A stretch of 64,000 bases of DNA from a virus (lineage: Duplodnaviria; Caudoviricetes). The notes below the pieces were generated by a model. It saw only the letters and a list, made by a program, of their open reading frames with translations. It made no database searches and was not told the origin of the DNA. The stretch lies in the IMG/VR virus record IMGVR_UViG_3300028364_000013. The stretch is one strand, 5' to 3'. The translations under genes and the position numbers were made by a program. The number at the start of each line of letters is the position of its first letter. Position 1 is the stretch's first letter. Of the stretch, positions 5,483-52,317 are shown one piece after another.

Positions 5483-6443
5483 TATAGTAAACCACATCAG
5501 CTATAACAAATTGCTTCAGGAATTTCACCCAAAAAAAAACAATGATGTTAAATTATTGGATTTTAGTCATGGAAGTCATAAAAAAGTCTGGTGGAAGTGT
5601 AGCGCTTCTTATGACCACGAGTGGGAAGCTACAATAAACCACAGAGCTCAAGGACGTGGGTGTCCATTTTGTAGCGGTAAGAAAGTTGCTGAATCAAACG
5701 CTTTGTCAACAACTCATCCAGAAATAGCAAAAGAGTGGCATCCAACAAAAAACACCTTGACACCAGACGATATAACTTTTGGTAGTGAAAAAAATATTTG
5801 GTGGAAATGCGATATTGCTGACGACCATGAATGGGAGACAACAGTTAAACATAGGTCAAGTGGAAATGGTTGCCCTTGTTGTTCTGGTTATAAAGTTGTA
5901 AACTCTAACTCTCTTACCACACAACACTCAGAATTATCAAAAGAATGGCATCCAACAAAAAATGGAGTAATAACTCCAAATGATGTATCTGGTGGTCATC
6001 GCAAAGTATGGTGGATATGTTCGCAAGATGGTAACCATCAATGGAAGGCTTCTATAAAAGATAGAATAAGAGGTAGGAGATGCCCTCATTGTCATTATCC
6101 TAAAAGCAAAGGTCACCTAAAAATAGAAAAAATACTTATTGATAATAATATTAATTTTGAAACAGAGAAAAAGTTTGATGATTGTGTGTTCAAAAGAATG
6201 CTTAGATTTGATATTTATTTACCAACCTTAAATGCTTTAGTTGAATATGATGGAAGACAACATACCAATGCAGTTGATATATTTGGAGGTAAAAAAGAAT
6301 TGGTTAAAACCCAGAAAAGAGATAAAATAAAAGATGAATATGCTAAAAATAACAATATTCATCTTTTAAGAATTTCTCACAAAGAATTCAAAAATATTGA
6401 GTCAATTGTGTTAGATTATTTGAAGGTAATTACAAACTCTTAA
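5469..6443 (+). CDS. putative homing endonuclease: tandem Zn-ribbon repeats + Vsr/DUF559-like nuclease domain
   Basis: Repeats HP.KN....VWWKC....HEW.......GCP.C; C-terminal RFDIYLP...VEYDGRQH. Confidence 0.8.
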   Translation: MKKNNIVNHISYNKLLQEFHPKKNNDVKLLDFSHGSHKKVWWKCSASYDHEWEATINHRAQGRGCPFCSGKKVAESNALSTTHPEIAKEWHPTKNTLTPDDITFGSEKNIWWKCDIADDHEWETTVKHRSSGNGCPCCSGYKVVNSNSLTTQHSELSKEWHPTKNGVITPNDVSGGHRKVWWICSQDGNHQWKASIKDRIRGRRCPHCHYPKSKGHLKIEKILIDNNINFETEKKFDDCVFKRMLRFDIYLPTLNALVEYDGRQHTNAVDIFGGKKELVKTQKRDKIKDEYAKNNNIHLLRISHKEFKNIESIVLDYLKVITNS

Positions 6444-31828: not shown

Positions 31829-34126
31829 ATGATTTATTTAGACTATATTTACACACAGATAATTGACAACATGAACGACAGCAAGAAAGAGAAAGTAACA
31901 GGAATTATAGATAAGATAATTTTTCACAATCAAGATAATGGATACTATATACTAAGCGTATCTCTTCCAAATGATGAAGATGTAACCATTACAGCAAGCC
32001 ACCCAAGTCTTCACGAAGGTGTAACTTATGAATTTGAAGGTGGATGGATTGAGCATGCTCGTTTTGGAAAACAGATGAACTCTAAAGCTGTATATGAAGT
32101 TCCACCAAACACTAAAGAAGGCCTTAAGGCATATCTTGCGTCAAGTTTCTTTCCAGGAATTGGTCCAGTTATCGCAAATCGAATAATCAAGCATTTTAAA
32201 AATGATGATGTCATAAGAGTGTTTAACGAAGACATCGAACTGCTTCTTGATGTTCCTGGAGTTTCTAAAAAGAAGTTAGAAGCAATCAAGGAGTCATGGG
32301 AGGCAAACAACGAAATAAATGAAATAATGATGTTCCTTCAGCAATTTGGTATTACCACTGTATATGCTGCAAAGATTTATAAGCATTATGGAAAAGGTTG
32401 TGTTGCTCAAATCAAAGAGAGACCTTATGAGATTGCAAGAGATATTAAAGGAATAGGATTCAAGTATGCAGATAAAATTGCTCTTGAAGTTGGTGTTGAG
32501 CCTGATAGCGAAGAGAGAATAAAAGCCTGCATTATGCACATCCTTGAATCTGGTAGTCTTGATGGTCATTGCTATTTATTAAGAGAGCAAATTACTATTA
32601 AGTCAACCGAATTACTTGGAGTTGACATTAGACCCCAAGTTGAGAACATCTTAAAGTATATGATTCAAGAAAAAGATATTTTAACAATATATCTTGATGA
32701 TGAAGAAAACGAAACAAGGTACTATTCTAAAAAGCTTTATTATAATGAAAAAAAATGTGCCAACAGAATTGGAGAACTTTTATTAAATCACAAAAACATT
32801 GAAATATCTGAAACAATAATTGAAACTGGCAAATTAAGTAATGAACAAAAAGAATCAGTTTTTGGAGTTATATCTAAAGGGGTTTCAATATTAACTGGAG
32901 GCCCTGGTTGTGGAAAAACATATACAACAAAAACTATTGTTGAAGTATTGTTGAAATTAGGTAAAAACTTAGCGGTTTGTGCTCCTACAGGAAAAGCTGC
33001 ATTACGTAGCACATCAGTTATTGGATTTGAAGCTTCAACTATTCATAGACTTCTTGGTTGGGACCCAGAGAGTTTTGGATTTATGCATAATGAAAATAAT
33101 CCATTACCATTTGATTTTATAATAACAGAAGAAGCTTCGATGATTGATATAAATTTAATGTCATCATTTTTAAAAGCAATACCTGACGAATGTCAGATAT
33201 TATTTGTTGGAGACCACAATCAATTACCCCCTGTAAATGCTGGAGCACCATTTAGAGATATGATAGAAAGCGAAATTGTTCCAACATTTAAACTTACTGA
33301 AATTTTTAGACAAGCTAAAAACTCTGAAATCATAACTTCAGCACATGATATAAATAATGGAATAATGCCTGTAATCAAAAATCCTTTAATAAATCCAGAG
33401 ATTTGGAAAGATGGAACAGATTGTATGTTTATTGACTCTGGAGTTGGTGAATATGGAAGGCCGAATAGTGAATATCCAGAGCGGTCTTCTCTTAGATATG
33501 GTATGGATGTGGTGGATATGATTAAAAACATTTACACTAAAACTATAAAAAAGTACTATAACACAGATGATATTCAAATATTAATCCCAATGAAAGTATC
33601 TGATTTAGGAACTATTAAAATAAACTCAATTATTCAAGAAACAATAAATCCACTAAAAAGAGGAGATGAAGAAATAAAAATAGGTGATAAAAAATTTAGA
33701 AAAAACGATAAAGTAATCCATATACAGAATAATTATGACCTTGAGGTTTTTAATGGAGAAATAGGAAAGATAATATTAATTGATTCCATTTCTGGTTTTT
33801 GTGAAGTAGAATTTGATGGGGGTAAAATAATTAAATATAAAAAATCAAATATGATTGAACTTGAACTTTCGTTTGCCGTTTCAATACATAAATACCAAGG
33901 CAGTGAATGTTCTTGCATAATATTACCAATAATGCCAACATACAACAGAATGCTTGAGAGAACTTTAATCTATACTGGAATCACTCGTGCAAAAAAATTG
34001 TGTATTTTTATTGGCAAAAGAGAATCGTTGCAAAAAGCTGTTAATACAGTTAATTCATCTAAAAGACAAACTTCTCTTAAAGAACTTTTAATTGAGTCTG
34101 ATATGGTAAATTCACTTATCCCTTAA
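31829..34126 (+). CDS. recD2: RecD2-type SF1B helicase
   Basis: N-terminal OB, GIGP and GIGFKYAD HhH motifs, TGGPGCGKT, EEASM, GDHNQLPPV, SIHKYQGSE, YTGITRAK. Confidence 0.92.
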   Translation: MIYLDYIYTQIIDNMNDSKKEKVTGIIDKIIFHNQDNGYYILSVSLPNDEDVTITASHPSLHEGVTYEFEGGWIEHARFGKQMNSKAVYEVPPNTKEGLKAYLASSFFPGIGPVIANRIIKHFKNDDVIRVFNEDIELLLDVPGVSKKKLEAIKESWEANNEINEIMMFLQQFGITTVYAAKIYKHYGKGCVAQIKERPYEIARDIKGIGFKYADKIALEVGVEPDSEERIKACIMHILESGSLDGHCYLLREQITIKSTELLGVDIRPQVENILKYMIQEKDILTIYLDDEENETRYYSKKLYYNEKKCANRIGELLLNHKNIEISETIIETGKLSNEQKESVFGVISKGVSILTGGPGCGKTYTTKTIVEVLLKLGKNLAVCAPTGKAALRSTSVIGFEASTIHRLLGWDPESFGFMHNENNPLPFDFIITEEASMIDINLMSSFLKAIPDECQILFVGDHNQLPPVNAGAPFRDMIESEIVPTFKLTEIFRQAKNSEIITSAHDINNGIMPVIKNPLINPEIWKDGTDCMFIDSGVGEYGRPNSEYPERSSLRYGMDVVDMIKNIYTKTIKKYYNTDDIQILIPMKVSDLGTIKINSIIQETINPLKRGDEEIKIGDKKFRKNDKVIHIQNNYDLEVFNGEIGKIILIDSISGFCEVEFDGGKIIKYKKSNMIELELSFAVSIHKYQGSECSCIILPIMPTYNRMLERTLIYTGITRAKKLCIFIGKRESLQKAVNTVNSSKRQTSLKELLIESDMVNSLIP

Positions 34127-35092
34127 TGTTCTATATTTATAAAACTCTTGTGATTCTAATTGTTTAAAATTTAATAAATTTAAAACTATTTCAGGAGAAT
34201 TGTTATACAAATCCACAAAATAAATCTCTTTATCAATTTTCCATAAAATTATTAATCCAATATTATTTTCTTTACAATATTTTTCTTTTATTTTATCTCT
34301 TTTCTGTGTCTCTTTTAATTTTTCGATTCCACCGAAATATTCAACAGATTCAAAATGTTGATTTCCATGATATTCTATACACACATTTTGTTTTGGCAAA
34401 TAAAAATCAAATTTTAAATGCAAAATATATTTACAATCATTAAATTTTTTCTCACCTTCCAACTTTACCATGTTTTCTTTTAAAATTTTATAAATCATTT
34501 TTTCTCCATTTGAAAACTTGCACTTAGGACACCCATCGCCTCTTTTATGTGCGTTAGGGGTTTGCTTAAAATCACCATGATTTGAACATATGATAGATAC
34601 TTTTTTCATACAATTATCATAATTAACTTTTGAGTAATCATATTTATCTCCATGAACTAATTTAGAATCAGATATAAACTCTTTCAATGTCAATCTTGAT
34701 TTATTTGCATTTAATTTAATTCCACACTTTATACAACCATATTTTAAATGATTTTTAGGAGTTTGTTTAAACTCTCCATGTTCTGGACAAATAATTTTTA
34801 CTGCTTTTAAAGAATTGTTGTATTGAACTAGAGAGTAATCGTATTTATTTGTATGTATATTCCTCACCTTTTTAATAAATTCTTCAGTCGTTATATTTTT
34901 GTTAACACATTTTGGACACCCCTGTCCTCTAAAATGTTTTTCTGCAGATTGTTCAAAAATACCATGTTCTGAACAAATAATTTCAACCTTCAATTTACTC
35001 CCTAAATATTCAACAAGTGAATAATCATATTTGTATTCATGAATTTTATTTGACCTTTCTGTAAACTCTTCTGTTGTTAGTTTTACTGACAT
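34112..35092 (-). CDS. putative homing endonuclease: YDYS/IC..HG repeats + Vsr/DUF559-like nuclease
   Basis: 3 repeats KYDYS.V.Y.....V.IIC..HG.F.Q; KFDFYLP...IEYHGNQH. Confidence 0.8.
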   Translation of the reverse strand: MSVKLTTEEFTERSNKIHEYKYDYSLVEYLGSKLKVEIICSEHGIFEQSAEKHFRGQGCPKCVNKNITTEEFIKKVRNIHTNKYDYSLVQYNNSLKAVKIICPEHGEFKQTPKNHLKYGCIKCGIKLNANKSRLTLKEFISDSKLVHGDKYDYSKVNYDNCMKKVSIICSNHGDFKQTPNAHKRGDGCPKCKFSNGEKMIYKILKENMVKLEGEKKFNDCKYILHLKFDFYLPKQNVCIEYHGNQHFESVEYFGGIEKLKETQKRDKIKEKYCKENNIGLIILWKIDKEIYFVDLYNNSPEIVLNLLNFKQLESQEFYKYRTLRDK

Positions 35093-40482: not shown

Positions 40483-41230
40483 CTAATTTTTAATTATTTT
40501 ATATTGTCTCTTATGTATTTCTACTTTATCAAGCACAAATTTAGTACTAATTGCTTGAACAAACAAATTAAAAGCATCATCTTTATCAATAACAATAATT
40601 TCAACTGGTTTAACATTACCATCAACCCATTGAATCTTTTTCCATTGCTCATTAGAATAAGTCCCATCAGTTTTGGGCATCTCACCTTTACACACTTTCA
40701 AAGTGAAGTCACTCTTAATTTCAATAAATCTATCTCCAAAGTCAAAATCTGGAATGTATTGTCCATGAGGTGTTTTAAATTTTTTTCTATTTGGTTTTGG
40801 CAAATCAACTCCGTCATTAATTAACCTCTGAAGATATGCTACCTCATAAGAACCAAGAACCTTTCCAGCTTTTGTATTAAAAGTTCTTGACTTACCTATA
40901 ACTGGAAGTCTATCTTCTTTGTCCCAAGCTTCAATTCCACTTTTAGAAATCTGTTCTTTCGACTTTTTAGAATGTTTCCTTCCAGTAAATCCTTTAGTTG
41001 GACCATATACTTCTCTGTTTTTTTTGCAAAGGTCACTCTTGCTAATTTTTGGAACTTTCCATTTATCAAGCCAATATGTTATTGAAAAATCACTTCTATC
41101 AAACAGATTTCCTATATATTTTGCCCCCCTATGCTCTTTTGAATAAAGTTGTATGATTTCTTTTTTTTCTTCTGTAGAAGGCTCTCCCTTTCTTTTATAG
41201 TAAACTCTCTTTCTAACTTGCAGCCACTTT
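40483..41230 (-). pseudogene. 5'-truncated NUMOD3 / PD-(D/E)XK endonuclease
   Basis: Frame stays open well upstream of TTG 40803 (GRKHSKKSKEQIS; SYEVAYL; YIPDF..IEIKS) with no ATG. Confidence 0.6.
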
Positions 41231-41295
41231 GGGCAACCACAAGAAAGATAGATGGAGTTATTTATGAAGGGAACATTAATAAAGGAGAAGATTAA
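41200..41295 (+). pseudogene. C-terminal remnant of an HNH-like endonuclease
   Basis: IVNSLSNLQPLWATTRKIDGVIYEGNINKGED*. Confidence 0.5.
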
Positions 41296-41669
41296 TCTAA
41301 AATTATAATAGAATCTATTTGTTTTCTGGTCATATTGACTCTTGAAACTTGAATTAAAACCTCATCTCCAAGCCTATAGCTATCTCCATTATTAAAATCG
41401 TTTATACAATAGTTTTCTTCATCAACAAATAGATTATTGGATTTTAGCCAATCTTCTGAAACCATTGTATCACATCCATTTTCTATTATTTCTATAAAAA
41501 CACCAAACGAATTTACACTGGAAATAATTCCTTTAAATTTCTCTCCAATTTTACTCTTCAGAAACTCGCACTGCTTGTACTTAATGGATTCTCTCTGTGC
41601 TTTAGCAGCTTTTTGTTCTTGTTCACTTAGATGTTCGCACATTTGTGATAATTGTGATTTATTATACAT
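41292..41669 (-). CDS. rnr: RNase R C-terminal piece (end of RNB + S1)
   Basis: CEHLSEQEQKAAKAQRESIKYKQCEF..IGEKF.G.ISSV..FGVFIE..YRLGDEV.IQV. Confidence 0.85.
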   Translation of the reverse strand: MYNKSQLSQMCEHLSEQEQKAAKAQRESIKYKQCEFLKSKIGEKFKGIISSVNSFGVFIEIIENGCDTMVSEDWLKSNNLFVDEENYCINDFNNGDSYRLGDEVLIQVSRVNMTRKQIDSIIILD

Positions 41670-42472
41670 TATATAGGTAAATTTACTTTATTTAACATTT
41701 TATTTGAGACATGGGTATATATCTCAGTGGTTTTAGATGATGAGTGACCCGCTATCTTCTGAATAATTCTAAGGTCTGTGCCGCTTTCCAATAGATTTGT
41801 GAAAGAAGAATGGCGTAGTGTGTGAATTGAAGAGTTGTTGTCAATATACTTCTTATATATTTTCTGACAACTACCAACTGAATACTGGTCATAATTTTGA
41901 CCATTAAACAAATAAGTTTTTGGCCTATATTCTTTCCAATAATACCTCAACAACTGCAGCACATAGTTCGATAATGGTACAACCCTATCTTTTCTTCCCT
42001 TAGCATTTTTAATATAAATCAACATTCTGATGGAGTCAATATCTTCTATTTTTAAATTAACAACTTCTGATACACGAAGACCAACTGAATACGTTAAAGT
42101 CAATATTGCTTTATGTTTTAAATTTTCAATCTTTGATAACTTATCTTTAATCAATTCTCCATCTATAACTTTTGGTAACTTCTTTTCTTTCTTTGGCCTC
42201 TTAAAAGATACTTTATCATACTTTTTATTGAGCCCAAACTTATAAAGAAATCTAATTGCGTTAATAACTTGATTTTGTTTTGATATAGAAGTGAAATTAT
42301 AATTATTAAGATATAACTGAAAATCTTTTGAATTGAGGTGAATTATTCTTTTATCACCGCACCAAGTAATAAATTGCTTGATGTAATGGGTATAAATGTC
42401 CTTGGTTCTTTCAGAGTAGTTTAAATATATAAACTTTTGTTCACAAATCTTTACAATTTTTTGATTTAACAT
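41669..42472 (-). CDS. tyrosine recombinase, integron-like integrase
   Basis: YS.RT...Y, NQVINAIRFLY, RPKKEKKLP, GLRVSE, KGRKDR, HTLRHS, GHSS..TT.IYTHV. Confidence 0.9.
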   Translation of the reverse strand: MLNQKIVKICEQKFIYLNYSERTKDIYTHYIKQFITWCGDKRIIHLNSKDFQLYLNNYNFTSISKQNQVINAIRFLYKFGLNKKYDKVSFKRPKKEKKLPKVIDGELIKDKLSKIENLKHKAILTLTYSVGLRVSEVVNLKIEDIDSIRMLIYIKNAKGRKDRVVPLSNYVLQLLRYYWKEYRPKTYLFNGQNYDQYSVGSCQKIYKKYIDNNSSIHTLRHSSFTNLLESGTDLRIIQKIAGHSSSKTTEIYTHVSNKMLNKVNLPI

Positions 42473-42510
42473 CTTATATCAATTTAATAATCAATGATTT
42501 ATAAAAAGGT

Positions 42511-42534
42511 GTTTATATATAGTCGTTATGTGGC
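42511..42534 (+). other. attI-like site
   Basis: GTTTATATATAGTC-G/TTATGTGGC: R site without a partner hairpin, just upstream of the divergent integrase. Confidence 0.6.
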
Positions 42535-42693
42535 ATTATACCACCACATCTTTTTTGTGATTTTGTGTTTTTTAACTAATTCCTTCGTATGTTCTTTAAT
42601 ATCTTCGTAATCTTTTGAAACTTCATTCAATTTTTCACAAAAAGATACGTAACAATCGTATTCATCATCAATTCTACTTATACTACTTCCCAT
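42526..42693 (-). CDS. cassette 1 protein, 55 aa (not in ORF track)
   Basis: MGSSISRIDDEYDCY...WWYNAT*; stop lies within the R site. Confidence 0.6.
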   Translation of the reverse strand: MGSSISRIDDEYDCYVSFCEKLNEVSKDYEDIKEHTKELVKKHKITKKMWWYNAT

Positions 42694-42701
42694 AATTTAA
42701 C

Positions 42702-42828
42702 GCCACATAACAACGTATATAAAACATTGCTTTAGTGGTCTTTTATTTAGTTTATTAATAATTCAAAATTTGTTGTTTATCTGTTAAGTTTCGGTTGGCA
42801 ACGTTTCATATACAAAACGTTGTGGTGC
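42702..42828 (+). repeat. attC-like 1
   Basis: GCCACATAAC; GTATATAAAACATTGC / GCAACGTTTCATATAC; GTTGTGGTGC. Confidence 0.85.
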
Positions 42829-42830
42829 AT

Positions 42831-43139
42831 TTAGAAAGAAAGTGCTTCACCTGCAACAACACCAGGGTCGCCATATTTACCTTCATCTTCTTCATCAAAG
42901 TTTTGTATAATTTGAAGAGCCTTTTTATACTTCATAAGGCGTTCAGTTAATGTCTGTTTTGCAAGTTCAATCCATTCACCATTTGGCGAGTGCTTGCAAC
43001 ATAAAATTCCGTTAATCACTTTTTCTTGATAATACATAGTTAAAAAACGCACCACAACAATGTATAACAGCAATAGCGGGTTGTAGTGCTTAATTTTAAC
43101 ACCATTGCTTCTAATTAATATTCTGTTTAATTCAATCAT
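42831..43139 (-). CDS. cassette 2 protein
   Basis: ORF; start either in attC2 or at internal MYYQ. Confidence 0.65.
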   Translation of the reverse strand: MIELNRILIRSNGVKIKHYNPLLLLYIVVVRFLTMYYQEKVINGILCCKHSPNGEWIELAKQTLTERLMKYKKALQIIQNFDEEDEGKYGDPGVVAGEALSF

Positions 43140-43186
43140 TTGTGCTTTCTAATCCGCTACTGCGGTTATACTCAGCGTTATAAGTC
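43049..43186 (+). repeat. attC-like 2
   Basis: GCACCACAAC; GTATAACAGCAATAGCGG / CCGCTACTGCGGTTATAC; GTTATAAGTC. Confidence 0.88.
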
Positions 43187-43387
43187 ATTTAGAACTTCAA
43201 TTCTATGTGGTTCATAATCAATAGGAGTTATATAATACAAACAAGGTATGTTTTTACTCAAACCTCTCATTCCAATCATTACGTCAGAATCATTTTTATA
43301 ATCTACTTTGTCAGATAAAAAACGACTTATAACATCAGCTATATGTAACACCTTTCCATCTTTATCAAATATTTCTAATTTATCCAT
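43178..43387 (-). CDS. cassette 3 protein, starts inside attC3
   Basis: MDKLEIFDKDGKVLHIADV|ISRF. Confidence 0.7.
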   Translation of the reverse strand: MDKLEIFDKDGKVLHIADVISRFLSDKVDYKNDSDVMIGMRGLSKNIPCLYYITPIDYEPHRIEVLNDL

Positions 43388-43459
43388 TGTTTCAGTATTT
43401 TAAGTTAGTATAGTAATCTATCAAGGTCGGCACTACACATAGCCCAAGCGGTTAGGTTT
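43324..43459 (+). repeat. attC-like 3
   Basis: GACTTATAAC; GCTATATGTAAC / CTACACATAGC; GTTAGGTTT. Confidence 0.8.
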
Positions 43460-44057
43460 AATATTCACTAAGTTTAATGCTACCTTCAATCTCATTTCCC
43501 CAAGCATCCCATCCTTGTCTAATATTTCTGGAGAACAATTCTAATTTATTTCCTTTAGATACTTTTTCAATAAGTTCATAAAAGAAGTCTGGTTTTTTTG
43601 AATGGCAAGGGTAGCCGTTTACATATTGTCTTTTTTCTTCAAACCAAGTTCCGTTTATTTTTTCATTTACCAATTCATTAACCTTGCCTTTGGTTGCAAA
43701 AATTAAGTATTCAGTAGACACTTTAAAAGTTCCACCCATTCCGCTACCTATTGGTTTTTTACACCATACAAGGGTTGTAGAGTATTTAAAACCCCAAGCC
43801 TTTACAACTTCTTCCGCTTTCATTAAATACTTATTTGTAACCCACAAATACAAATGACAATTATCAGCAGTCAAGTTTTTAATAGGCAGGTTTACTATGT
43901 CTTCAAATTTCATTGTGTTATAAGGCAAGTCTGCAGACTTATCGCTTTTTGGATTAAACACTTGTACCCCATTTTCTTTTTTGTAACCACCGCTTAATGG
44001 TCTCCCTGCTTTTTGCTCCCAAGCTGGGTCTGCATATATTATATTGTATTTATTCAT
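43458..44057 (-). CDS. MT-A70 family methyltransferase (cassette 4)
   Basis: IIYADPAW, YNTM, LYLWVTN, WGFKY, HSKKP, LELFSR..R.GW..WGNE. Confidence 0.88.
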   Translation of the reverse strand: MNKYNIIYADPAWEQKAGRPLSGGYKKENGVQVFNPKSDKSADLPYNTMKFEDIVNLPIKNLTADNCHLYLWVTNKYLMKAEEVVKAWGFKYSTTLVWCKKPIGSGMGGTFKVSTEYLIFATKGKVNELVNEKINGTWFEEKRQYVNGYPCHSKKPDFFYELIEKVSKGNKLELFSRNIRQGWDAWGNEIEGSIKLSEY

Positions 44058-44085
44058 ATTTATTCTTTAAAATCCGTTCATACTA

Positions 44086-44143
44086 AAACCTAACAATGTG
44101 TAAAACGGCATTAAAACGACCGTTTACACTAGGCGTTGTAAGT
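44086..44143 (+). repeat. attC-like 4 (short)
   Basis: AAACCTAAC; GTGTAAAACGG / CCGTTTACAC (one unpaired base); GTTGTAAGT. Confidence 0.85.
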
Positions 44144-44156
44144 AATTGGTTTTTAC

Positions 44157-44381
44157 CTACTGCGTATCTGCATAAGCACATTCATTACATTTTCTTTCCA
44201 CATATACAGCAGTGTTTTCGCAACTATCACAAACCAACTCCGTACAACACCGTGTATAAATAATAGCTTGCTTATTTCTGTCTTTTAAGATTACGTAAGC
44301 TTCATCGCTTATTTTGTTATCTTGGTGCAACCTATCAAGTGTAAATCCTGTTTGGATAAGTTGGTTATTTGTTTCGTTCAT
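44157..44381 (-). CDS. cassette 5 protein, starts inside attC5
   Basis: ORF crosses R'' at 44241-44248. Confidence 0.65.
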   Translation of the reverse strand: MNETNNQLIQTGFTLDRLHQDNKISDEAYVILKDRNKQAIIYTRCCTELVCDSCENTAVYVERKCNECAYADTQ

Positions 44382-44440
44382 TTTTATAAAATTTAGTTGT
44401 TATTAATCGCTACTATTCATACACAAATCAGTTGTAGTGA
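44241..44440 (+). repeat. attC-like 5 (long)
   Basis: CGTACAAC; GTGTATAAATAATAGC / GCTACTATTCATACAC; GTTGTAGTGA. Confidence 0.82.
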
Positions 44441-44443
44441 ATG

Positions 44444-44635
44444 CTACAATCCTACCTTTGATTTAAGTTCAGATATTGACATCCAGCTTTTAATTGATTT
44501 TGGTTGAACCCAATCGCTTTCCATGTCTGCTTTGAACATTCCATCTTTGTAATAGGCAAATTCAAGTACTCCACTAATATGTTCAACCAACACCCTTGTC
44601 ATATTTTCGGGTAATTCTAAATCTGTATTTTTCAT
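44444..44635 (-). CDS. cassette 6 protein
   Basis: self-contained ORF. Confidence 0.65.
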   Translation of the reverse strand: MKNTDLELPENMTRVLVEHISGVLEFAYYKDGMFKADMESDWVQPKSIKSWMSISELKSKVGL

Positions 44636-44667
44636 TTCAATTATACATTTAAGTTAATAATCCGCAC

Positions 44668-44738
44668 TCACTACAACACTTTGTATAGTGCATAGCTCGT
44701 GCCTCACTACGACACCATACAAGATGCCGTTGTAGGTA
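44668..44738 (+). repeat. attC-like 6
   Basis: TCACTACAAC; TGTATAGTG / CACCATACA; GTTGTAGGTA. Confidence 0.82.
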
Positions 44739-44747
44739 ATAAATTTA

Positions 44748-44930
44748 CTACTCTTGTGGTTCAAGAATGTCATAAGCATCTCTTATACATCCTTTTAATG
44801 TTGTGGCAACTGTTTGCATCCTAAAAGCACCGTTGTAATCTTCGGCTTTTATCTTATCATCAATTAAGCCTTGTAAATGTTGCCACTTGGTTTGCCATTC
44901 TTCAATCTGTTGTTTCAATTTATCTTCCAT
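44748..44930 (-). CDS. cassette 7 protein
   Basis: self-contained ORF. Confidence 0.65.
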   Translation of the reverse strand: MEDKLKQQIEEWQTKWQHLQGLIDDKIKAEDYNGAFRMQTVATTLKGCIRDAYDILEPQE

Positions 44931-44969
44931 TATATTTTTAAGTTTAGTGTTTCAATTCTGCAGGATTAC

Positions 44970-45030
44970 TACCTACAACAAAGGCTATAAAGCCATACAA
45001 GTACAGGCTCATAGCCTAGACATTATATGC
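44970..45030 (+). repeat. attC-like 7 (R' degenerate, ATT)
   Basis: TACCTACAAC; GGCTATAAAGCC / GGCTCATAGCC; ATTATATGC. Confidence 0.78.
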
Positions 45031-45038
45031 AATAAAAA

Positions 45039-45314
45039 TTACTTACGTCTTGGGTCTTCATCACACCATAGTTTATAACAATTAACTTTTCGCTTTATTA
45101 ACCGTGCTTTGTCTTGGATTTCTTCAAGGTTGGTAGCTGTTAATATAGCATCTAATGACACACTTCCACCACTACTGTCATCTAAATATCTTCCAAGCCA
45201 AACACTACCTTCGTCCGCTAATTCGTGCATTTTTGCATAATCAGGGAAACATTCTTTTACTTCTTTAATTAATTTTTGTGAGTACATAATCGTAATTTTA
45301 AAAGCATATAACAA
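45039..45314 (-). CDS. cassette 8 protein (probable start MYSQK)
   Basis: ORF inside cassette. Confidence 0.7.
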   Translation of the reverse strand: MLYAFKITIMYSQKLIKEVKECFPDYAKMHELADEGSVWLGRYLDDSSGGSVSLDAILTATNLEEIQDKARLIKRKVNCYKLWCDEDPRRK

Positions 45315-45437
45315 CGTGTATATTTTATTGCTACATACCGCCTATCTAAAGGCTTGTTAATATTTATTCAGTTCTGTTCTTATTTAAAGTTTATTGATAC
45401 CTATACGCAACAAAGCATACACAAACCGTTACCAAAC
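45304..45437 (+). repeat. attC-like 8
   Basis: GCATATAAC; GTGTATATTTTATTGC / GCAACAAAGCATACAC; GTTACCAAAC. Confidence 0.82.
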
Positions 45438-45438
45438 A

Positions 45439-45729
45439 TTAAATAACTTGGTACATCATTCCTGCAACTTGTGGCCCGTGTGTGTCATACGCTTTATCAT
45501 AAGCATCATTACTATCTTCTGCCTCTATTTCAAACGTCCATCCGTCTTTCCCTTCTGATTCAAACCAGAATAAATAACGTTTGGTAACACTATCTATAGG
45601 TAATGTCTGCCCTAGCTTTAGTGCTTGTAAGCGAAATTCAAATTCGTTTAAGAACTCTTGGTCTGTTGGTGTTCCTCCGATACCCTCCATTCCTTTTACT
45701 ATGTCAATTACTTTTTCTGATATATTCAT
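45439..45729 (-). CDS. cassette 9 protein, starts inside attC9
   Basis: ...LPIDSV|TKRYL. Confidence 0.7.
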   Translation of the reverse strand: MNISEKVIDIVKGMEGIGGTPTDQEFLNEFEFRLQALKLGQTLPIDSVTKRYLFWFESEGKDGWTFEIEAEDSNDAYDKAYDTHGPQVAGMMYQVI

Positions 45730-45788
45730 GATTAATTTTTAGTTATTTAAGTCGGGCAAAAAATACCCATAGATTTAACGTTAGCATT
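45579..45788 (+). repeat. attC-like 9 (long)
   Basis: GTTTGGTAAC; ATCTATAGGTA / TACCCATAGAT; GTTAGCATT. Confidence 0.8.
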
Positions 45789-46036
45789 CATAGTATTTGC
45801 CTTTCATCTATTGGTTTTTGGCATTCAATACAGTAAGGCGTACCATTTTCATCATTATCTCTACCTTTAGCCTGTGAGCATCGGCAAAATAACGAAATGC
45901 TAACATCAGGTATGGAGCAGTTTTTTACTCGCTCCTGGTCACATTCATTCCACACCTTCAACAGTGCTTGTTGTACGCTTGTACTATTGGGATAAGCTGT
46001 TTCAGCCTGTATCTCTTTTATTCTTTCAGTTGTCAT
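45788..46036 (-). CDS. cassette 10 protein, starts inside attC10
   Basis: ...CSIPDV|SISLFC; C-terminal CIEC. Confidence 0.7.
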   Translation of the reverse strand: MTTERIKEIQAETAYPNSTSVQQALLKVWNECDQERVKNCSIPDVSISLFCRCSQAKGRDNDENGTPYCIECQKPIDERQIL

Positions 46037-46098
46037 ACAATAAAGTTTAGTGTTTCAAATCCGTAAAAAATCCGCTCCATACCCCTAGCGTTATATGC
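45896..46098 (+). repeat. attC-like 10 (long)
   Basis: AATGCTAAC; GGTATGGAGCAGTTTTTTAC / GTAAAAAATCCGCTCCATACC; GTTATATGC. Confidence 0.88.
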
Positions 46099-46161
46099 AA
46101 TGCTACGTTATCACTTCGTATTAAGTTTCATCATAACATTCCCTTTGTTTTTCCACCGAAC

Positions 46162-46725
46162 TTATAATTCTAAATCCATATTAAATGGTTTAAAATTATT
46201 ATCTTCAATCATTTTCCTAACTCTTGGATGAAATTTATAAAATATTGAATTTGGTAAATCAATATCCCAATCCATCACGTCTATTAATTTGTTAATAATT
46301 CTACCTTGGAATATTTCATCTACATTTTCTATAAATAATTCATCAAAAGGAAAATGGACATTTCCAAATGTTGAATACATTTCAACCCAATCTAATATTT
46401 CTTTTTCTAATCTACTGTAATCATATCTAACTAAATCTTTTACTAATAGTTCGTTTTCACTATGTGCTATTATCTGACCACCATAGTCTAATAATTCTTT
46501 TCTATAAAGTTTCTTATGATTATCAGATATTTCTTTATACATTTTCTCAGGCATCTCACTACCATTTTCTATGTTTTTATTAACAAATGTTAAAAACTCT
46601 TTATCATCCCATAAATCATCTGAACTTGGTTCATAATTCATATCCTTTAAATTGCCATCTTGGTCAATATATGCTTCATTCAAATATTCACGTATAGTCG
46701 TTGCTATAAATTTTCTTAATTCCAT
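46162..46725 (-). CDS. cassette 11 protein
   Basis: MELRKFIATTIREYLNE; TATTTAT motif upstream. Confidence 0.75.
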   Translation of the reverse strand: MELRKFIATTIREYLNEAYIDQDGNLKDMNYEPSSDDLWDDKEFLTFVNKNIENGSEMPEKMYKEISDNHKKLYRKELLDYGGQIIAHSENELLVKDLVRYDYSRLEKEILDWVEMYSTFGNVHFPFDELFIENVDEIFQGRIINKLIDVMDWDIDLPNSIFYKFHPRVRKMIEDNNFKPFNMDLEL

Positions 46726-46839
46726 AATAATAAATAGTTTAATCTATATATAAATAATCACTTTTTAATATTCCACCCACAAAAATAAAACAAAAAGGCT
46801 TCGTTCTTCGTATCAGCATTTGTGGTTAAAATCCGCACA

Positions 46840-46861
46840 GCATATAACAAGTGTTAGTTGC
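46840..46861 (+). repeat. collapsed attC-like 11 (arms missing)
   Basis: GCATATAAC-AAGT-GTTAGTTGC. Confidence 0.7.
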
Positions 46862-47111
46862 AATGCTGTGGGTTTTTGCAACCTTCGTAGTGTTCCATAT
46901 CGCTTCCGTAACCGTTATACCACAAAACATATTCGCAATTTCTAACTTTTACTATTTGTAAGTCTGCCTTCCATTTAGGGTTGCTTATGTACATTTCTCT
47001 GTTATCTTTTTCTTGCTCAATATTTTCTTTGGTTTCATCTCCACAAGAAGAAAGCACAGCAACTAACACAAAATATAGCGTATAACTTAATTTCGTTCTT
47101 AAATTTTTCAT
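46854..47111 (-). CDS. cassette 12 lipoprotein, starts inside attC12
   Basis: MKNLRTKLSYTLYFVLVAVLSSC lipobox. Confidence 0.7.
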   Translation of the reverse strand: MKNLRTKLSYTLYFVLVAVLSSCGDETKENIEQEKDNREMYISNPKWKADLQIVKVRNCEYVLWYNGYGSDMEHYEGCKNPQHCN

Positions 47112-47194
47112 CTGTTCTGTTTTTAAAGTTTATTAATTATTAAAAGTTTTGTGCTGTTTTTGTCGTTACACACCATATTCAACACGTTATCGGC
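47059..47194 (+). repeat. attC-like 12
   Basis: GCAACTAAC; AATATAGCGTATAAC / GTTACACACCATATT; GTTATCGGC. Confidence 0.78.
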
Positions 47195-47204
47195 AAATGC
47201 TACA

Positions 47205-47378
47205 TTACTTCTTCGTATCAATATTTACGTTAGAAGTTTTTATTTTTTGCCCACGCTCTTTGATTAACTTACGTATTTCAGTTTCACATAAGTTTTTACG
47301 ACTTCTACCATCTTCTTTAGCAATAGCATCAAGAATATCAGTTTCATCTCTATCTAAATGTATTTCTATTCTTACCAT
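47205..47378 (-). CDS. RHH/CopG-like protein, cassette 13 (not in ORF track)
   Basis: MVRIEIHLDRDETDILDAIAKEDGRSRKNLCETEIRKLIKE. Confidence 0.65.
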   Translation of the reverse strand: MVRIEIHLDRDETDILDAIAKEDGRSRKNLCETEIRKLIKERGQKIKTSNVNIDTKK

Positions 47379-47695
47379 TAATCAATCATTTTAATTGATG
47401 AGTATGCAATGTTCCAAACCTCTCCATTTTCTCTTTTACATTTAACTTTCTTTGGATTTAGTTTTAAAACTTCCCAAATTTCACCTTTAAATTTATCACT
47501 AGCAACGGAAACTATGTCTCCTACTTTCAAATCGGTTTTTGATTTTTCTTTCCGTTCCAATTTAATTTGATATTCTTGTTCACGAATAAGTCTATTTGCA
47601 TCAGCAATTACTTTGTTCAATTCATCTAATGATAATCCAGTCAAGTCTATTTTACTTTCAGTATTTATCGTTGCCAGTTCTTGTAGTAAATTCAT
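47378..47695 (-). CDS. cassette 13 protein with SH3/KOW-like C-terminus
   Basis: LKVGDIV......GEIWEV.KLNPKKVKC. Confidence 0.7.
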   Translation of the reverse strand: MNLLQELATINTESKIDLTGLSLDELNKVIADANRLIREQEYQIKLERKEKSKTDLKVGDIVSVASDKFKGEIWEVLKLNPKKVKCKRENGEVWNIAYSSIKMID

Positions 47696-47849
47696 CTTAT
47701 TTTGTTTTAGTGTTATAGTTAATCATACGACAAACTTACGATAAAGTTTCGTATAAACCAAATCTTTTTCAATTATTTTTCTTCCGACCCTAAAAAATAA
47801 AAACTTATTTAGTGCTTCGTATTGAAATTAAGATAGATAATCCGCATCA

Positions 47850-47919
47850 GCCGATAACATTTTGTATATTTCAGTTTGCGAAAAGCAAACCGATAACATA
47901 CAATTTGCCGTTACCCTTA
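47850..47919 (+). repeat. attC-like 13
   Basis: GCCGATAAC; TGTATATTTCAGTTTGC / GCAAACCGATAACATACA; GTTACCCTTA. Confidence 0.85.
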
Positions 47920-47922
47920 ATA

Positions 47923-48420
47923 CTAGACATCTGTTTTCATAAAAGACATCCAATGCGTATTTGAGCGTTTACCTGATTTGTGTCCAAATAATGGTTGATG
48001 GCCAATGGCATTTAATATTTGAGTAACTGTAATTTGGGTTTCGTTCCATTTGAATATTAAAGTCCCATAAGGCTCTAAAACTCGCATACATTCATTAAAT
48101 CCAGTTTTTATATCTAATTCCCAAGTAGGTAATAAAACACCATACTTTTTAGCCATCCAACTGTCTTTTCCTAACTTATTTAAGTGTGGTGGGTCAAATA
48201 CTACCATTTTGAAAGTATTGTCTTTAAATGGCATATCTCTAAAATCAACCTCAATATCAGGTTTAACCTCTATTGTTCTAATTCCAGTATTTACGCTACT
48301 ATCTTTTACTTCTACGGTTTCCGTTCTTATGTCAGCAAATAAAACATTAGGGTTTGTTTTGTCAAACCAGAACATTCTACTTCCGCAACAAGCATCTAAT
48401 ATTTTTTTATCTGTATTCAT
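47923..48420 (-). CDS. class I SAM-dependent methyltransferase (cassette 14)
   Basis: ILDACCGSRMFWFDK, DFRDMPF, VVFDPPH, ECMRVL..GTLIFKWNE. Confidence 0.85.
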   Translation of the reverse strand: MNTDKKILDACCGSRMFWFDKTNPNVLFADIRTETVEVKDSSVNTGIRTIEVKPDIEVDFRDMPFKDNTFKMVVFDPPHLNKLGKDSWMAKKYGVLLPTWELDIKTGFNECMRVLEPYGTLIFKWNETQITVTQILNAIGHQPLFGHKSGKRSNTHWMSFMKTDV

Positions 48421-48451
48421 TATTCAAATTTCGTTTTTAATCAACCCGTAC

Positions 48452-48524
48452 TAAGGGTAACAATTTGTATAATGCATAATTTGTAAAAACAAATTCCGAC
48501 ACCATACAATAGCCGTTAGCGGTA
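48452..48524 (+). repeat. attC-like 14
   Basis: TAAGGGTAAC; TGTATAATG / CACCATACA; GTTAGCGGTA. Confidence 0.82.
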
Positions 48525-48528
48525 ATGG

Positions 48529-48759
48529 TCAGACGTTGTATCTAACAGCAGATGCCATTGCTATCAACAATAGTATTCCTGTTATAATAGCACCATCTGT
48601 TCCGAACATTTGTCCTATACAAAACATTACACCACCTGCCAATATTGTTGATACAAACATATACCATCCAGTTCCACTTTTAGGCTTTAATAAACCACTA
48701 CCGCTAACAAAGGGTTTATTAAATGGCTCAGTTTCGTTTTTCAAATTATCTTTTTCCAT
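48529..48759 (-). CDS. cassette 15 membrane protein
   Basis: ...FNKPFV|SGSG; R'' TACCGCTAAC at 48699; partner arm not found. Confidence 0.65.
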   Translation of the reverse strand: MEKDNLKNETEPFNKPFVSGSGLLKPKSGTGWYMFVSTILAGGVMFCIGQMFGTDGAIITGILLLIAMASAVRYNV

Positions 48760-48859
48760 ATTTTAAAGTTTTATGATTCTAATTAATTTTTGTGCGTAAA
48801 GTAACATTAAGTTAATTATCATAAAATATGATGAAAGTATATCTAAAAAAATAAATAAG

Positions 48860-50422
48860 CTATTGTCCGCCATTCATATAATACCACAATAATCTATGAC
48901 TCAAAATATCGCTGTATCTTCTTATTGGTGATGTAAAGTGACTATAGTGCTTGAATCCGAGTCCATAGTGACCAATTATTTGAGTTGAATAAACTGCTTT
49001 CGACATTGAGCGAATAGCTAACGTTGAAATCATTGCTTCCTCACCACTTCCAGACGCTTTCTTCAACATCTCGTTGAGAGATGCTTTGGTAGCTTCCATG
49101 CTTCCTGAAGTATTAAAGTGATAACCGAACTGAGATACGAATAAACTTAACTCATGCAGTTTCTCTTCACTTGGAAGGTCGTGTGTTCTATATACGAATG
49201 GCTTGGTAAGTCCGTGTGCATAAGTTGCAACATACTTGTTAGCCAATAACATGTACTCTTCAATAAGTTGATGAGCATCTGCAGATTCATGAAAGAAAAC
49301 ATCTATTGGAACATTGTCCTCATCAAGAACAAAGTTTGGCTCTCTTCTGTTGAAGGTGACCGCTCCATCTTTAAATCTTTTCTTTCTAACTTTCTTTGCA
49401 ATGCCATTCAATATTTTCACACAATCGAATACTCCCATCCCTGGTGGAACGCTTTCTATTCTGTCGGCAGTTCCTTCTATAATCTCTTGCGCTTCTTCAT
49501 ACGTCAATCTACAATCAGAGTTGATTACAGTCTTCTTGAAATTGTGCTTAACAACTTCTCCATCTGGAGACATCTGAAAGATAACCGAGAATGTCAGTTT
49601 TTCTTCATTTGGTCGTAAGCTACAGATTCCATTAGAAAGCCTCTCTGGGAGCATTGGAATACATCTATCAACAAGATAAACTGAAGTCGCTCTTCTAAAT
49701 GCTTCCTTATCCAATTCACTTCCTGGTCTAACATAATGTGTTACATCAGCAATGTGAACTCCAATCTCGTAATTCCCATTATCCAATTTCTTGAATGATA
49801 TTGCATCATCAAAATCTTTTGCACTGTCTGGGTCAATGGTGATTGTCAAATCTCCACGCATATCTCTACGCTTAAGAATCTCCTTTTCAGAAATCTCAAC
49901 TGGAATGTCTTCAGCTTCTTTCATAACTGCATCAGAGAAATCATAATCAATATTATGCTTAAACATAATGCTGTTCATTTCAGTCTCGTGAGTTTCAGCT
50001 GCGCCAATCACTTTTGTGACAATACCTTTTGGGCTTTTGTCCTTCTTGTGCCATCGGTGCAATTTAACAACCACAACCTCTCCATCCTTAGCGCCATTTA
50101 GGTGCTCCATTGGAACATAGAAATCTACTGGCATCTTACCTCCAGAAGTTCTAACAAAAGCAAATCCCTTTTCTTCATTGATGTCAATTACACCAGAGAA
50201 TTCAGTTTTGCTTCTATCTTCAACTCTTTCTACTATACCTTGTTCTCCAGTACCTTTTCCGCTTTCGTCTTTAACAATTGACACTGTGACCTTATCTCCA
50301 TGAAGAGCTTGGCCTGTATTTTTTTTGTGAATGAACAAATCATCATTGCCTTCTAATATTAAGTAAGCATGACCGTTTCTTATAAACTCTATTGTTCCTT
50401 CAGTTTGTTTTAATTTTTTCAT
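48860..50422 (-). CDS. rnr: RNase R, N-terminal piece (CSD1/2 + RNB), lacks S1
   Basis: TIDPDSAKDFDDA, VHIADV, RATSVYL, HQLIEEYMLLAN, HFTSPIRRYSD. Confidence 0.92.
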   Translation of the reverse strand: MKKLKQTEGTIEFIRNGHAYLILEGNDDLFIHKKNTGQALHGDKVTVSIVKDESGKGTGEQGIVERVEDRSKTEFSGVIDINEEKGFAFVRTSGGKMPVDFYVPMEHLNGAKDGEVVVVKLHRWHKKDKSPKGIVTKVIGAAETHETEMNSIMFKHNIDYDFSDAVMKEAEDIPVEISEKEILKRRDMRGDLTITIDPDSAKDFDDAISFKKLDNGNYEIGVHIADVTHYVRPGSELDKEAFRRATSVYLVDRCIPMLPERLSNGICSLRPNEEKLTFSVIFQMSPDGEVVKHNFKKTVINSDCRLTYEEAQEIIEGTADRIESVPPGMGVFDCVKILNGIAKKVRKKRFKDGAVTFNRREPNFVLDEDNVPIDVFFHESADAHQLIEEYMLLANKYVATYAHGLTKPFVYRTHDLPSEEKLHELSLFVSQFGYHFNTSGSMEATKASLNEMLKKASGSGEEAMISTLAIRSMSKAVYSTQIIGHYGLGFKHYSHFTSPIRRYSDILSHRLLWYYMNGGQ

Positions 50423-50425
50423 GTT

Positions 50426-50686
50426 TTATTTTCTATTTCTACAGTCAACTTCTGTTGCTGTTATCACTTGATGCATAGAAACCCATACATCATTTCCCGC
50501 CTCGTCATTACCTCTTATGTAACCATCATGCACGCTTCCTCCATAAACCCACATTGCACTTCCATCCACAAGTTGGACATCAAGCCTTGTTTTACAGTCA
50601 TAAGAGTTTGTTGTTTTACCGACACCCTCACAAGAATTTAATACAAATGTAAGCAATGCAAAGCAGATAATAAGTAAATTTTTCAT
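50426..50686 (-). CDS. putative lipoprotein
   Basis: MKNLLIICFALLTFVLNSC lipobox. Confidence 0.7.
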   Translation of the reverse strand: MKNLLIICFALLTFVLNSCEGVGKTTNSYDCKTRLDVQLVDGSAMWVYGGSVHDGYIRGNDEAGNDVWVSMHQVITATEVDCRNRK

Positions 50687-50745: not shown

Positions 50746-52317
50746 TTAATAATTTATATTCTCTGGTCTCATTTGAGGGAAAAATAACACATCTTGAATT
50801 GATTTTTGTTCAGTTAAAATCATTACCAATCTATCAATTCCAATACCAAGACCTGCAGTAGGAGGCATCCCATATTCCAATGCTCTCAAGAAATCTTCAT
50901 CCATACCCATAGCTTCATCATCACCTGCTCCAGCAAGACGAAGTTGCTCTTCAAACCTTTCTCTCTGGTCAATTGGGTCATTAAGCTCACTATAAGCATT
51001 AGCAACTTCTTTACCATTGATTACAAGTTCAAATCTTTCAACTATGCCAGCGTCTGTTCTATGCTTTTTAGCAAGCGGAGACATCTCAACTGGATAATCG
51101 TATACAAACGTTGGTTGAATCAATTTAGGCTCAACAAACTCTCCGAAAATTTCATCAAGAAGCTTCGCTCTACCCATAGAGTTATCAACATGGATTTCAT
51201 GACCAGCAAGAAATACTCTAAGCTCATTATCTGTCATGCTCATTGCTTGACATCCAGAATATCTTTCAATCGCATCAAAGAACTTTATTTTTTCGAATTC
51301 TCCAAAGAAGCTAATTTTATTCTCTCCGAACACAGCTTCAACATCATCAACAATTGAGAATGCTGCTTTTTTTACAATCTGCTCACAAAAGTCCATCATC
51401 CACATATAATCTCTATTGGCTGCGTACAACTCAACTTGAGTAAACTCTGGATTATGGAACCTGCTCATTCCTTCGTTTCTGAAATCTTTAGCAAATTCAT
51501 ACACTCTTTCGAATCCTCCAACAATCAACCTCTTAAGATATAGCTCATTGGCAATTCTCAAATAAAGAGGAATGTCCAATTTATTGTGATGTGTCATAAA
51601 AGGCTTTGCGGTTGCACCACCATGAATTGGCTGTAAAACTGGAGTCTCAACTTCCATGAAAAATTCTTCATCCAATACTTCACGTATTGTTCGAATTATT
51701 CGTGTTCTATCTCTAAATACTTTTTTTGAATCTGGGTTTACCACAAGGTCAACATATCTTTGACGATACTTCATCTCTTGGTTCTCAAAAGAATCGTGAA
51801 CATTTCCTTCCTCATCTTTCTTAACAGTAGGAAGAGGTTTTAAAGACTTAGAAAGTATTGTAAACTTTGTTGCACGAATAGTTAGTTCACCAGTTTGAGT
51901 GACAAACATTTTACCTTCAACACCAACAAAGTCACCAAGGTCAACCAGTTTCTTAAAAACTGTATTGTACATTGTTTTGTCTTCGTCTGGACAAAGCTCG
52001 TCTCTTGAGATGAACACTTGCATTCTTCTTTCTGAATCATCTTGTAATTTAAAGAAAGATGCTTTTCCCATTATGTTCTTACTCATTAGCCTTCCAGACA
52101 ACTTAACAGTCCTTCCCATGTGCTCAATTTGAAGTTCTGTCGAAAAATGTTGAAGCGTATCAAACATTTCCCAAACACTTGTACAATCATATCTTATACG
52201 AGCTCCATTCTCAACATCATTGATAAACGGCTCAGCTGGATAAGGATTAATACCCAGGTCAATCATCGCTTGAAGATGCTCTCGTCTTACTATTTCTTGT
52301 TCTGATAATTTACGCAT
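50746..52317 (-). CDS. lysS: lysyl-tRNA synthetase class II
   Basis: GKASF, YRQRYVDL, YLRIANELYLKRL, FRNEGMSRFHNPEF, YGMPPTAGLGIGIDRL. Confidence 0.97.
   Translation of the reverse strand: MRKLSEQEIVRREHLQAMIDLGINPYPAEPFINDVENGARIRYDCTSVWEMFDTLQHFSTELQIEHMGRTVKLSGRLMSKNIMGKASFFKLQDDSERRMQVFISRDELCPDEDKTMYNTVFKKLVDLGDFVGVEGKMFVTQTGELTIRATKFTILSKSLKPLPTVKKDEEGNVHDSFENQEMKYRQRYVDLVVNPDSKKVFRDRTRIIRTIREVLDEEFFMEVETPVLQPIHGGATAKPFMTHHNKLDIPLYLRIANELYLKRLIVGGFERVYEFAKDFRNEGMSRFHNPEFTQVELYAANRDYMWMMDFCEQIVKKAAFSIVDDVEAVFGENKISFFGEFEKIKFFDAIERYSGCQAMSMTDNELRVFLAGHEIHVDNSMGRAKLLDEIFGEFVEPKLIQPTFVYDYPVEMSPLAKKHRTDAGIVERFELVINGKEVANAYSELNDPIDQRERFEEQLRLAGAGDDEAMGMDEDFLRALEYGMPPTAGLGIGIDRLVMILTEQKSIQDVLFFPQMRPENINY

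Follow-up and report, generated by a model that had tools for sequence, protein, structure and literature searches.

The question raised by this locus is how a phage gene for RNase R came to lie in two pieces with more than 7 kb of other DNA between them, and whether the two pieces still make one enzyme. The DNA concerned is a stretch of 64,000 nt (hereafter, the window) from a virus of the Caudoviricetes, IMG/VR record IMGVR_UViG_3300028364_000013, and corresponds to bases 8602-72601 (reversed) of that 168.6-kb virus record, which is rated 72% complete. An earlier note on this DNA had described an RNase R split in two by a 7.2-kb integron, giving either a two-polypeptide RNase R or a relic S1 piece. 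The analysis described here points to a "genes-in-pieces" RNase R of the kind represented by nrdA and mobE of Aeromonas phage Aeh1, in a new gene and with a predicted assembly of the enzyme from two chains, a reading to which we assign a probability of roughly 0.7. A homing-endonuclease gene probably made the original cut, long ago. The split outlives the loss of the endonuclease, and the gap takes up other genes, in this case an integron-like array. This reading is carried by the anatomy of the locus, the recurrence of the split among relatives, the series of states of the gap, a relic of an endonuclease gene and the conservation of both pieces, all of which are observed directly.

The locus is read on the minus strand in the order rnr-N, a 100-nt spacer, about 16 small open reading frames (ORFs), a gene for a 267-aa tyrosine recombinase and rnr-C. 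The two RNase R pieces are the following.

48860-50422, minus strand: rnr-N, the N-terminal RNase R piece (OB/CSD1, CSD2 and RNB catalytic core), 520 aa, with its end in the loop that follows the helix ...SHRLLWYY.
41292-41669, minus strand: rnr-C, the C-terminal RNase R piece (one long helix of the RNB domain end plus S1), 125 aa.

The C-terminal end of rnr-N reads ...HRLLWYYMNGGQ followed by the stop codon, and the N-terminus of rnr-C is MYNKSQLSQMCEHLSEQEQKAAKAQRESIKYKQ. Pfam recognizes OB_RNB, CSD2 and RNB in rnr-N, the last of these over positions 1-324 of 326 (E 3e-110), and the piece aligns to positions 64-578 of 711 of the TIGR02063 RNase_R model. The four-Asp motif (DxxxxxDxDD) of the RNB family is present as DPDSAKDFDDA, in which D197, D203, D205 and D206 are invariant (alignment A1). 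rnr-C continues the same model at positions 590-706 of 711 and contains an S1 domain (E 3e-10). The TIGR02063 scores are 553.4 bits for rnr-N and 104.4 bits for rnr-C, each below the cutoff of 597.85, which only the sum would pass. The order CSD1-CSD2-RNB-S1, which an RNase R equivalog carries in one polypeptide, is kept here, but it is distributed over two ORFs that are separated by 7190 nt in the window. The positions and domains that the earlier note gave for both ORFs, as well as the catalytic motif that it reported, were all confirmed. No second rnr was found in the 168.6-kb record, which contains one rnr only. An identical N protein is on record from 3 contigs and an identical C protein from 6, the longest being 364 kb; the split is therefore no assembly accident.

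The position of the break was set by comparison with unsplit relatives, a search for which the earlier note had proposed and which succeeded. The relative L002 has the same gene neighbourhood as the window and an unsplit rnr, and rnr-N is 72% identical to residues 1-525 of its protein. At the break, unsplit phage relatives (645-665 aa) read HRLLWEY..KNG.VSKL..QCEHCS, and the N piece (ending ..HRLLWYYMNGGQ) and the C piece (beginning MYNKSQLSQMCEHLS..) together span this stretch with an overlap of at most one codon and no loss. The N piece stops at the N position of ...KGKN/GDVSK... (the slash marking the break), and the C piece begins there with a new ATG. In an AlphaFold2 (AF2) model of the unsplit L002 protein, with a predicted local distance difference test (pLDDT) score of 83.8, the break falls in a nine-residue coil (524-532) in the loop between two helices (510-523 and 533-566), and the site is of variable length when the protein is aligned with B. 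subtilis RNase R (8CDU). The AF2 model of rnr-C (pLDDT 86.7) can be superposed over 122 columns on the C-terminal portion of the E. coli enzyme (5XGU), with a template modelling score (TMq) of 0.80-0.82. The first 38 residues of the C piece form a helix of the RNB fold and are its most conserved part (CEH..AAKAQRESIKYKQCE). Modelled alone, this helix has a lower pLDDT of 64-77, as would be expected if the helix needs a partner.

The same split recurs among relatives. Among the 120 best matches of rnr-N, at least 18 protein clusters are N pieces of 515-534 aa that end 10-16 residues past the HR motif, the rest being full length with S1. The search with rnr-C returned at least 22 protein clusters of stand-alone C pieces, mostly of 124-125 aa and 46-85% identical, with S1 intact; almost all begin with MYN, and the residues of the helix and of S1 are conserved. 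In phages other than that of the window, N and C pieces were paired only by matching the source, number and size of their contigs, and by this measure several N clusters probably have a C cluster beside them on their contigs. Wherever a locus could be read, the C piece lies on the same strand as the N piece and downstream of it. The 80 best IMG/VR rnr loci other than the window are all unsplit. A second group of N pieces (proteins P0040-P0048) is 51-76% identical to the window protein in the first 200 residues and 38-50% identical in residues 401-460. These proteins carry the altered motif GHYGLG.NFMPPNAY.WFTSGIRRYAD and have either mosaic or fast-evolving RNB halves.

The rival that survives best takes the two pieces as independent, the N piece being a self-sufficient exoribonuclease without S1 and the C piece a separate small S1 RNA-binding protein, with no complex between them. 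The E. coli RNB domain alone degrades structured RNA, according to work cited in PMC5714204 (its refs 24 and 25), and the N piece might likewise work by itself. Identities of the N and C pieces are discordant between phages (e.g., N 63% against C 86% in one pair), so that a tight co-evolution is not evident, and rnr-C in the window has another expression context, following the recombinase gene. This explanation is nevertheless unlikely. As mentioned above, the C piece opens with 38 residues that belong to the RNB fold, are its most conserved part and are modelled with lower pLDDT alone, and it follows the N piece on the same strand wherever a locus can be read.

The origin of the break can be judged from what fills the gap in comparable loci. 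L083, a 97.8-kb contig, shares the gene neighbourhood of L002 and the window, and L102 and L124 are distant loci split in the same loop.

L002: rnr unsplit, no gap.
L083: rnr split at the same codon; gap of 1158 nt with an antisense 306-aa ORF and a 50-aa ribbon-helix-helix (RHH) ORF, no recombinase.
L082: rnr split; gap of 121 nt, holding a relic of the end of the endonuclease gene.
L184 (about 940-965): rnr split; gap of 9 nt, TAA TAA AAT ATG, with two stop codons, one frame, the smallest gap seen.
L102 3380-4192 (minus strand) and L124 4296-5327 (minus strand): rnr split in the same loop; gap of about 1 kb with an antisense phage lysozyme gene (PF00959).
Window: rnr split; gap of 7190 nt between the ORFs, of which 7136 nt are the segment with array and recombinase.

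The 3' end of the lysozyme gene in L102 and L124 overlaps the N piece. The 306-aa ORF of L083 is assigned to phrog_559 "HNH endonuclease" (3e-76) and phrog_9084 "homing endonuclease" (2e-32), and contains DUF723 and treble-clef zinc repeats. What is left of this gene in the window, and what has been placed beside it, are listed below.

48776-48889, plus strand (antisense to rnr): relic of an endonuclease-like gene, its last 38 codons with an in-frame stop (tblastn of the L083 306-aa protein, E 7e-8, 47% over 38 aa).
48801-48806, minus strand: edge of the inserted segment on the side of rnr-N; the similarity to L083 extends to 48806 and is followed by GTTAC (blastn, MAFFT).
42526-48800, minus strand (the rnr strand): integron-like cassette array of about 16 small ORFs with attC-like imperfect palindromes between them.
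42473-42525, minus strand: attI-like region upstream of the recombinase gene (CTATATATAAACACC...ATTGAT), conserved beside the L054 homologue; compared by eye, with a putative function.
41669-42472, minus strand: Xer-type tyrosine recombinase, 267 aa (Pfam Phage_integrase and SAM_4).

The last 10 codons of the relic overlap the 3' end of rnr-N, and its DNA is 77% identical to L083 over 95 nt. Of the endonuclease gene, only these 38 codons were left when the 7.1-kb segment took its place. The array and the recombinase arrived after the split, since the 38-codon relic still adjoins rnr-N. Paralogues of the endonuclease gene are also found intact elsewhere in the window, at 34112-35092 (minus strand) with an RHH partner (to 35231) and at 5985-6431 (plus strand). 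The first of them is 47% identical over 288 aa, and overlaps at its 3' end with the end of a 765-aa ORF that runs towards it.

The next rival, that the array and its recombinase entered an intact rnr and so made the split, is the one closest to the description in the earlier note. Excision could then make the gene whole again, in the manner of the skin element of sigK. A site-specific recombinase does sit exactly at the C-side junction, and on the N side the homology to L083 ends at GTTAC, which resembles the cores of the array sites; the GTT at this boundary may mark the recombinase crossover. Against this, the array is probably not the cause of the break, since L083, L082 and L184 are split without array or recombinase, L102 and L124 are split without a recombinase, and rnr-N is separated from the array by the endonuclease relic. 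The two junctions of the segment have no direct repeat of at least 8 nt in common, shared 8-mers being frequent by chance in any case (646 of 1000 shuffles), and an excision would leave the stop codon and the relic and no fused ORF. A gene-restoring excision is thus unlikely. Finally, rnr lies near the recombinase in 3 of 80 loci, which is about what chance would give. This origin of the split is accordingly very improbable: the array occupies the break, as the earlier note stated, and another agent probably made it.

The recombinase family comprises more than 100 IMG/VR loci, and the three loci in which rnr was within the fetched stretch show three different arrangements. A special link between recombinase and rnr was dropped on these counts, 3 of 80 being close to the chance value for a genome of about 300 kb, and L054 and L048, in which an array and recombinase lie just upstream of an unsplit rnr, were dropped as evidence for the same reason.

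The name "integron" holds loosely. As in integrons, the small ORFs are promoter-poor and one-directional, the cassettes are bounded by hairpin-folding attC-like sites (foldable imperfect palindromes with TAAC...GTTA-type ends), and the adjacent tyrosine recombinase has an integron-like SAM_4 N-terminal domain. When folded as single-stranded DNA, two of the sites give z values of -3.4 and -4.3, two others being weaker. L054, whose recombinase is 63% identical, has a similar array upstream of its recombinase gene with the same kind of sites. Among the array ORFs are two methyltransferases (MT-A70 and methyltransferase hits) and one RHH protein (RHH_1), the others being unknowns. Integrons differ in having cassettes that read outward from attI, whereas all cassette ORFs here face the recombinase gene, which is encoded downstream of them on the same strand, and the array is borne by a phage. 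The recombinase is Xer-like. Its best NCBIfam match is XerA-type (169.5 bits), and it matches XerA (4A8E) over the full length. By comparison, the TIGR02249 integron integrase model gives 152.6 bits in two stretches against a cutoff of 265, and only blocks 18-172 and 210-261 align to IntI4 (2A3V), leaving about 48 residues of the IntI-specific region without a counterpart. "Integron-like" is therefore a fair description of the element, and it does not belong to the integrons proper.

At its far end, the recombinase retains a native C-terminus (...NLPI before the stop codon), the same as in the L054 homologue, and its stop codon overlaps the rnr-C ATG by one base (TAATG). Lying directly behind the recombinase gene, rnr-C is probably translated by coupling to it. 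A search for an own promoter of rnr-C with the Bacteroidota -7 motif TAnnTTTG gave no usable pattern. The sequence AACTT(T)AAA is found 5-25 nt upstream of many cassette start codons (window 42526-48800; L054 400-8000), and GCGGATT follows many attC-like sites in the window; both may be a cassette-borne phage promoter or initiation signal.

Decay of the gene, in which the split would have inactivated rnr and left one or both pieces as relics, is the third rival. The interruption of rnr itself and the group-B N pieces, with their strongly diverged C-terminal half of RNB, are what could be expected of a decaying gene. When group-A split proteins are compared with unsplit ones, their C-region identity agrees with the regression line obtained from 528 unsplit pairs (residual -1.2, sd 5.4). 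For the window paired with L083 or L002, the nonsynonymous divergence (dN) is about 0.2 for both pieces and the synonymous divergence (dS) is above 1.6 or undefined, giving a dN/dS of about 0.1 or less by a rough Nei-Gojobori (NG86) calculation, which is an upper-bound estimate only since dS is saturated. The stand-alone pieces show no internal stops and no length drift. The relic reading was rejected on the basis of this C-region divergence, the same as in unsplit proteins, together with the low dN/dS and the absence of stops and length drift. The uniform lengths across 22 C and 18 N clusters and the retention of catalytic and S1 residues speak against decay as well, which makes it a highly improbable explanation. 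Hence, of the two outcomes named in the earlier note, the two-polypeptide RNase R is favoured by the at least 22 C clusters with an intact S1 and no faster divergence, and the dN/dS check that the note had suggested for the S1 piece did not bear out its decay.

The distribution of the split allele gives a view of its history. When the tree is built from residues 1-440 of the N piece, each of the six closest split alleles stands beside unsplit sisters; the tree requires at least 5 changes, and the approximately unbiased (AU) test rejects their grouping in one clade (p-AU 3.4e-37). For residues 441-520, the split alleles cluster, with 3 changes, a number as low being found in 0 of 500 shuffles. 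All six split alleles have a junction-side signature, IRRYSD..SHRLLW in place of IRRYPD..AHRLLW, and all stand-alone C pieces have CEHL or CEHI in place of CEHC. Such a mosaic would fit homing with co-conversion of the flanks. The same mosaic would also arise from ordinary recombination near a hot spot.

These observations can be assembled into a proposed series of events. In an ancestor within a group of giant phages, a free-standing homing-endonuclease gene and a small RHH gene would have been inserted antisense in the last inter-helix loop of RNB, leaving two ORFs that span the original protein almost codon for codon. The two polypeptides are predicted to reassemble without a covalent link, the helix of the C piece packing onto the RNB core; this would place S1 over the RNA entry channel and give an enzyme like the single-chain RNase R. 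Homing-like gene conversion would then have spread the split allele among rnr alleles, together with about 60-80 codons of flanking sequence. After the split, DNA could be gained or lost between the pieces without further cost. In the lineage of the window, the 7136-nt segment (41670-48805) displaced the greater part of the endonuclease gene, together with the RHH gene and the sequence that used to lie upstream of rnr-C. As an extension of this scheme, the gap may be a reusable slot that is loaded repeatedly in giant phages (with endonuclease, lysozyme or array), in which the coupling of rnr-C would make the assembly of RNase R depend on recombinase expression and thereby link cassette shuffling with RNA decay. 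We regard this extension as quite unlikely.

Several points weigh against the reading of the locus as a two-chain enzyme cut by an endonuclease gene. The role of the endonuclease as first cutter is deduced from the L083 gene and the relics, and the gene is a putative one. The trees were of the "quick" kind, and the split group was defined for the AU test with the identity table already in view. The neighbourhood of N and C pieces in the other phages is derived from pairing by contig properties only. To these are added the saturated dS, the discordant N and C identities and the possible self-sufficiency of an RNB domain, as described above.

The closest known system is nrdA-a/mobE/nrdA-b of Aeromonas phage Aeh1 (Friedrich 2007 PNAS; Crona 2010 NAR, PMC3045599), in which the nrdA gene interrupted by mobE yields a fully active two-chain enzyme (PMC3045599). 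Both cases involve a gene for an enzyme of nucleic-acid metabolism in two ORFs on the same strand, with a free-standing homing-endonuclease gene in the gap (here a putative one in the relative L083, the window holding the relic only), no intron or intein, and retention of both halves. They differ in the split gene, here that of RNase R, and in the endonuclease gene, which here runs antisense and represents another family (DUF723, treble-clef zinc repeats, C-terminal nuclease). In Aeh1 the cut passes through the active site and the insertion-derived tails are essential, whereas the cut here lies between helices of the domain end and there are essentially no such tails. An N-piece tail copied from the endonuclease insertion, as in Aeh1, was ruled out by the junction alignment, in which ..YLKGGQ (followed by the stop) aligns with the ancestral ..YLKGKN. 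Moreover, the rnr split is widespread, outlives the endonuclease and has a gap that carries other genes.

In fractured genes with split inteins (Dassa 2009, PMC2677866), gene halves likewise flank a homing-endonuclease gene in environmental phage-like DNA; unlike these, the rnr break has no intein halves, so the pieces cannot be trans-spliced. A split-intein fractured gene was ruled out here by the absence of extra residues on either side of the break. Endonuclease genes are often located in introns or inteins. Rejoining of the pieces by splicing of RNA (through a group I/II intron) or of protein (through split inteins like those of the fractured genes, which are known from metagenomes together with a free-standing endonuclease; PMC2677866) is exceedingly improbable and excluded as far as sequence can show, given that no Rfam family, introns included, matches the gap at E up to 0.1 (window 40800-50500; L083 8600-10200), that the endonuclease gene is antisense, that no residues beyond the unsplit protein are available for intein halves, and that the gap of L184 is 9 nt with two stop codons.

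Compared with bacterial RNase R (E. coli 5XGU, B. subtilis 8CDU), the phage protein has the same domain order, catalytic motif and fold, and the closest cellular RNase R to the phage proteins is that of Flavobacteriaceae (about 50% identity). The bacterial enzymes are single polypeptides, whereas the phage RNase R consists of two; as its match to TIGR02063 starts at position 64 and the phage proteins amount to about 650 aa, against 705-760 aa for the bacterial relatives listed, the N-terminal helix-turn-helix (HTH) domain and the C-terminal basic tail appear to be missing.

Two neighbouring genes of the window may be mentioned. A class II lysyl-tRNA synthetase (tRNA-synt_2, 3e-87) is encoded at 50746-52317 (minus strand), just upstream of rnr-N, and no match to it was found in the syntenic loci L002 and L083. 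At 40483-40803 (minus strand), between rnr-C and a conserved exonuclease gene, lies a 106-aa ORF with a PDFDF...IEIK pattern that recalls the PD-(D/E)XK nuclease core; neither Pfam nor PHROG gives a hit for it, and no counterpart was found in either L002 or L083.

To our knowledge, only one gene cut by a free-standing homing endonuclease has been worked out biochemically, namely Aeh1 nrdA, from a single phage. A search of the literature on phage RNase R or split RNase R found no paper. The principle of such a split is already known, and the novelty lies in how widely the split occurs, in the series of states and in the way the gap is used again. The stages can be compared directly: a gene that is uncut, a gene cut with the endonuclease gene in place, a gene that is cut after its loss (gaps of 121 nt and 9 nt), and a gap that has been refilled. 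For annotation, an S1-less RNase R of about 520 aa from a phage metagenome is not necessarily a truncated or broken gene; a C-terminal ORF of about 125 aa lies downstream in the readable loci. The locus also offers a natural two-part RNase R with which the roles of S1 and of the last RNB helix in RNA binding and unwinding could be examined. Two testable ideas follow, namely that a conserved enzyme may tolerate fragmentation at a loop between two helices, and that a gene once split may serve as a safe landing place for mobile DNA.

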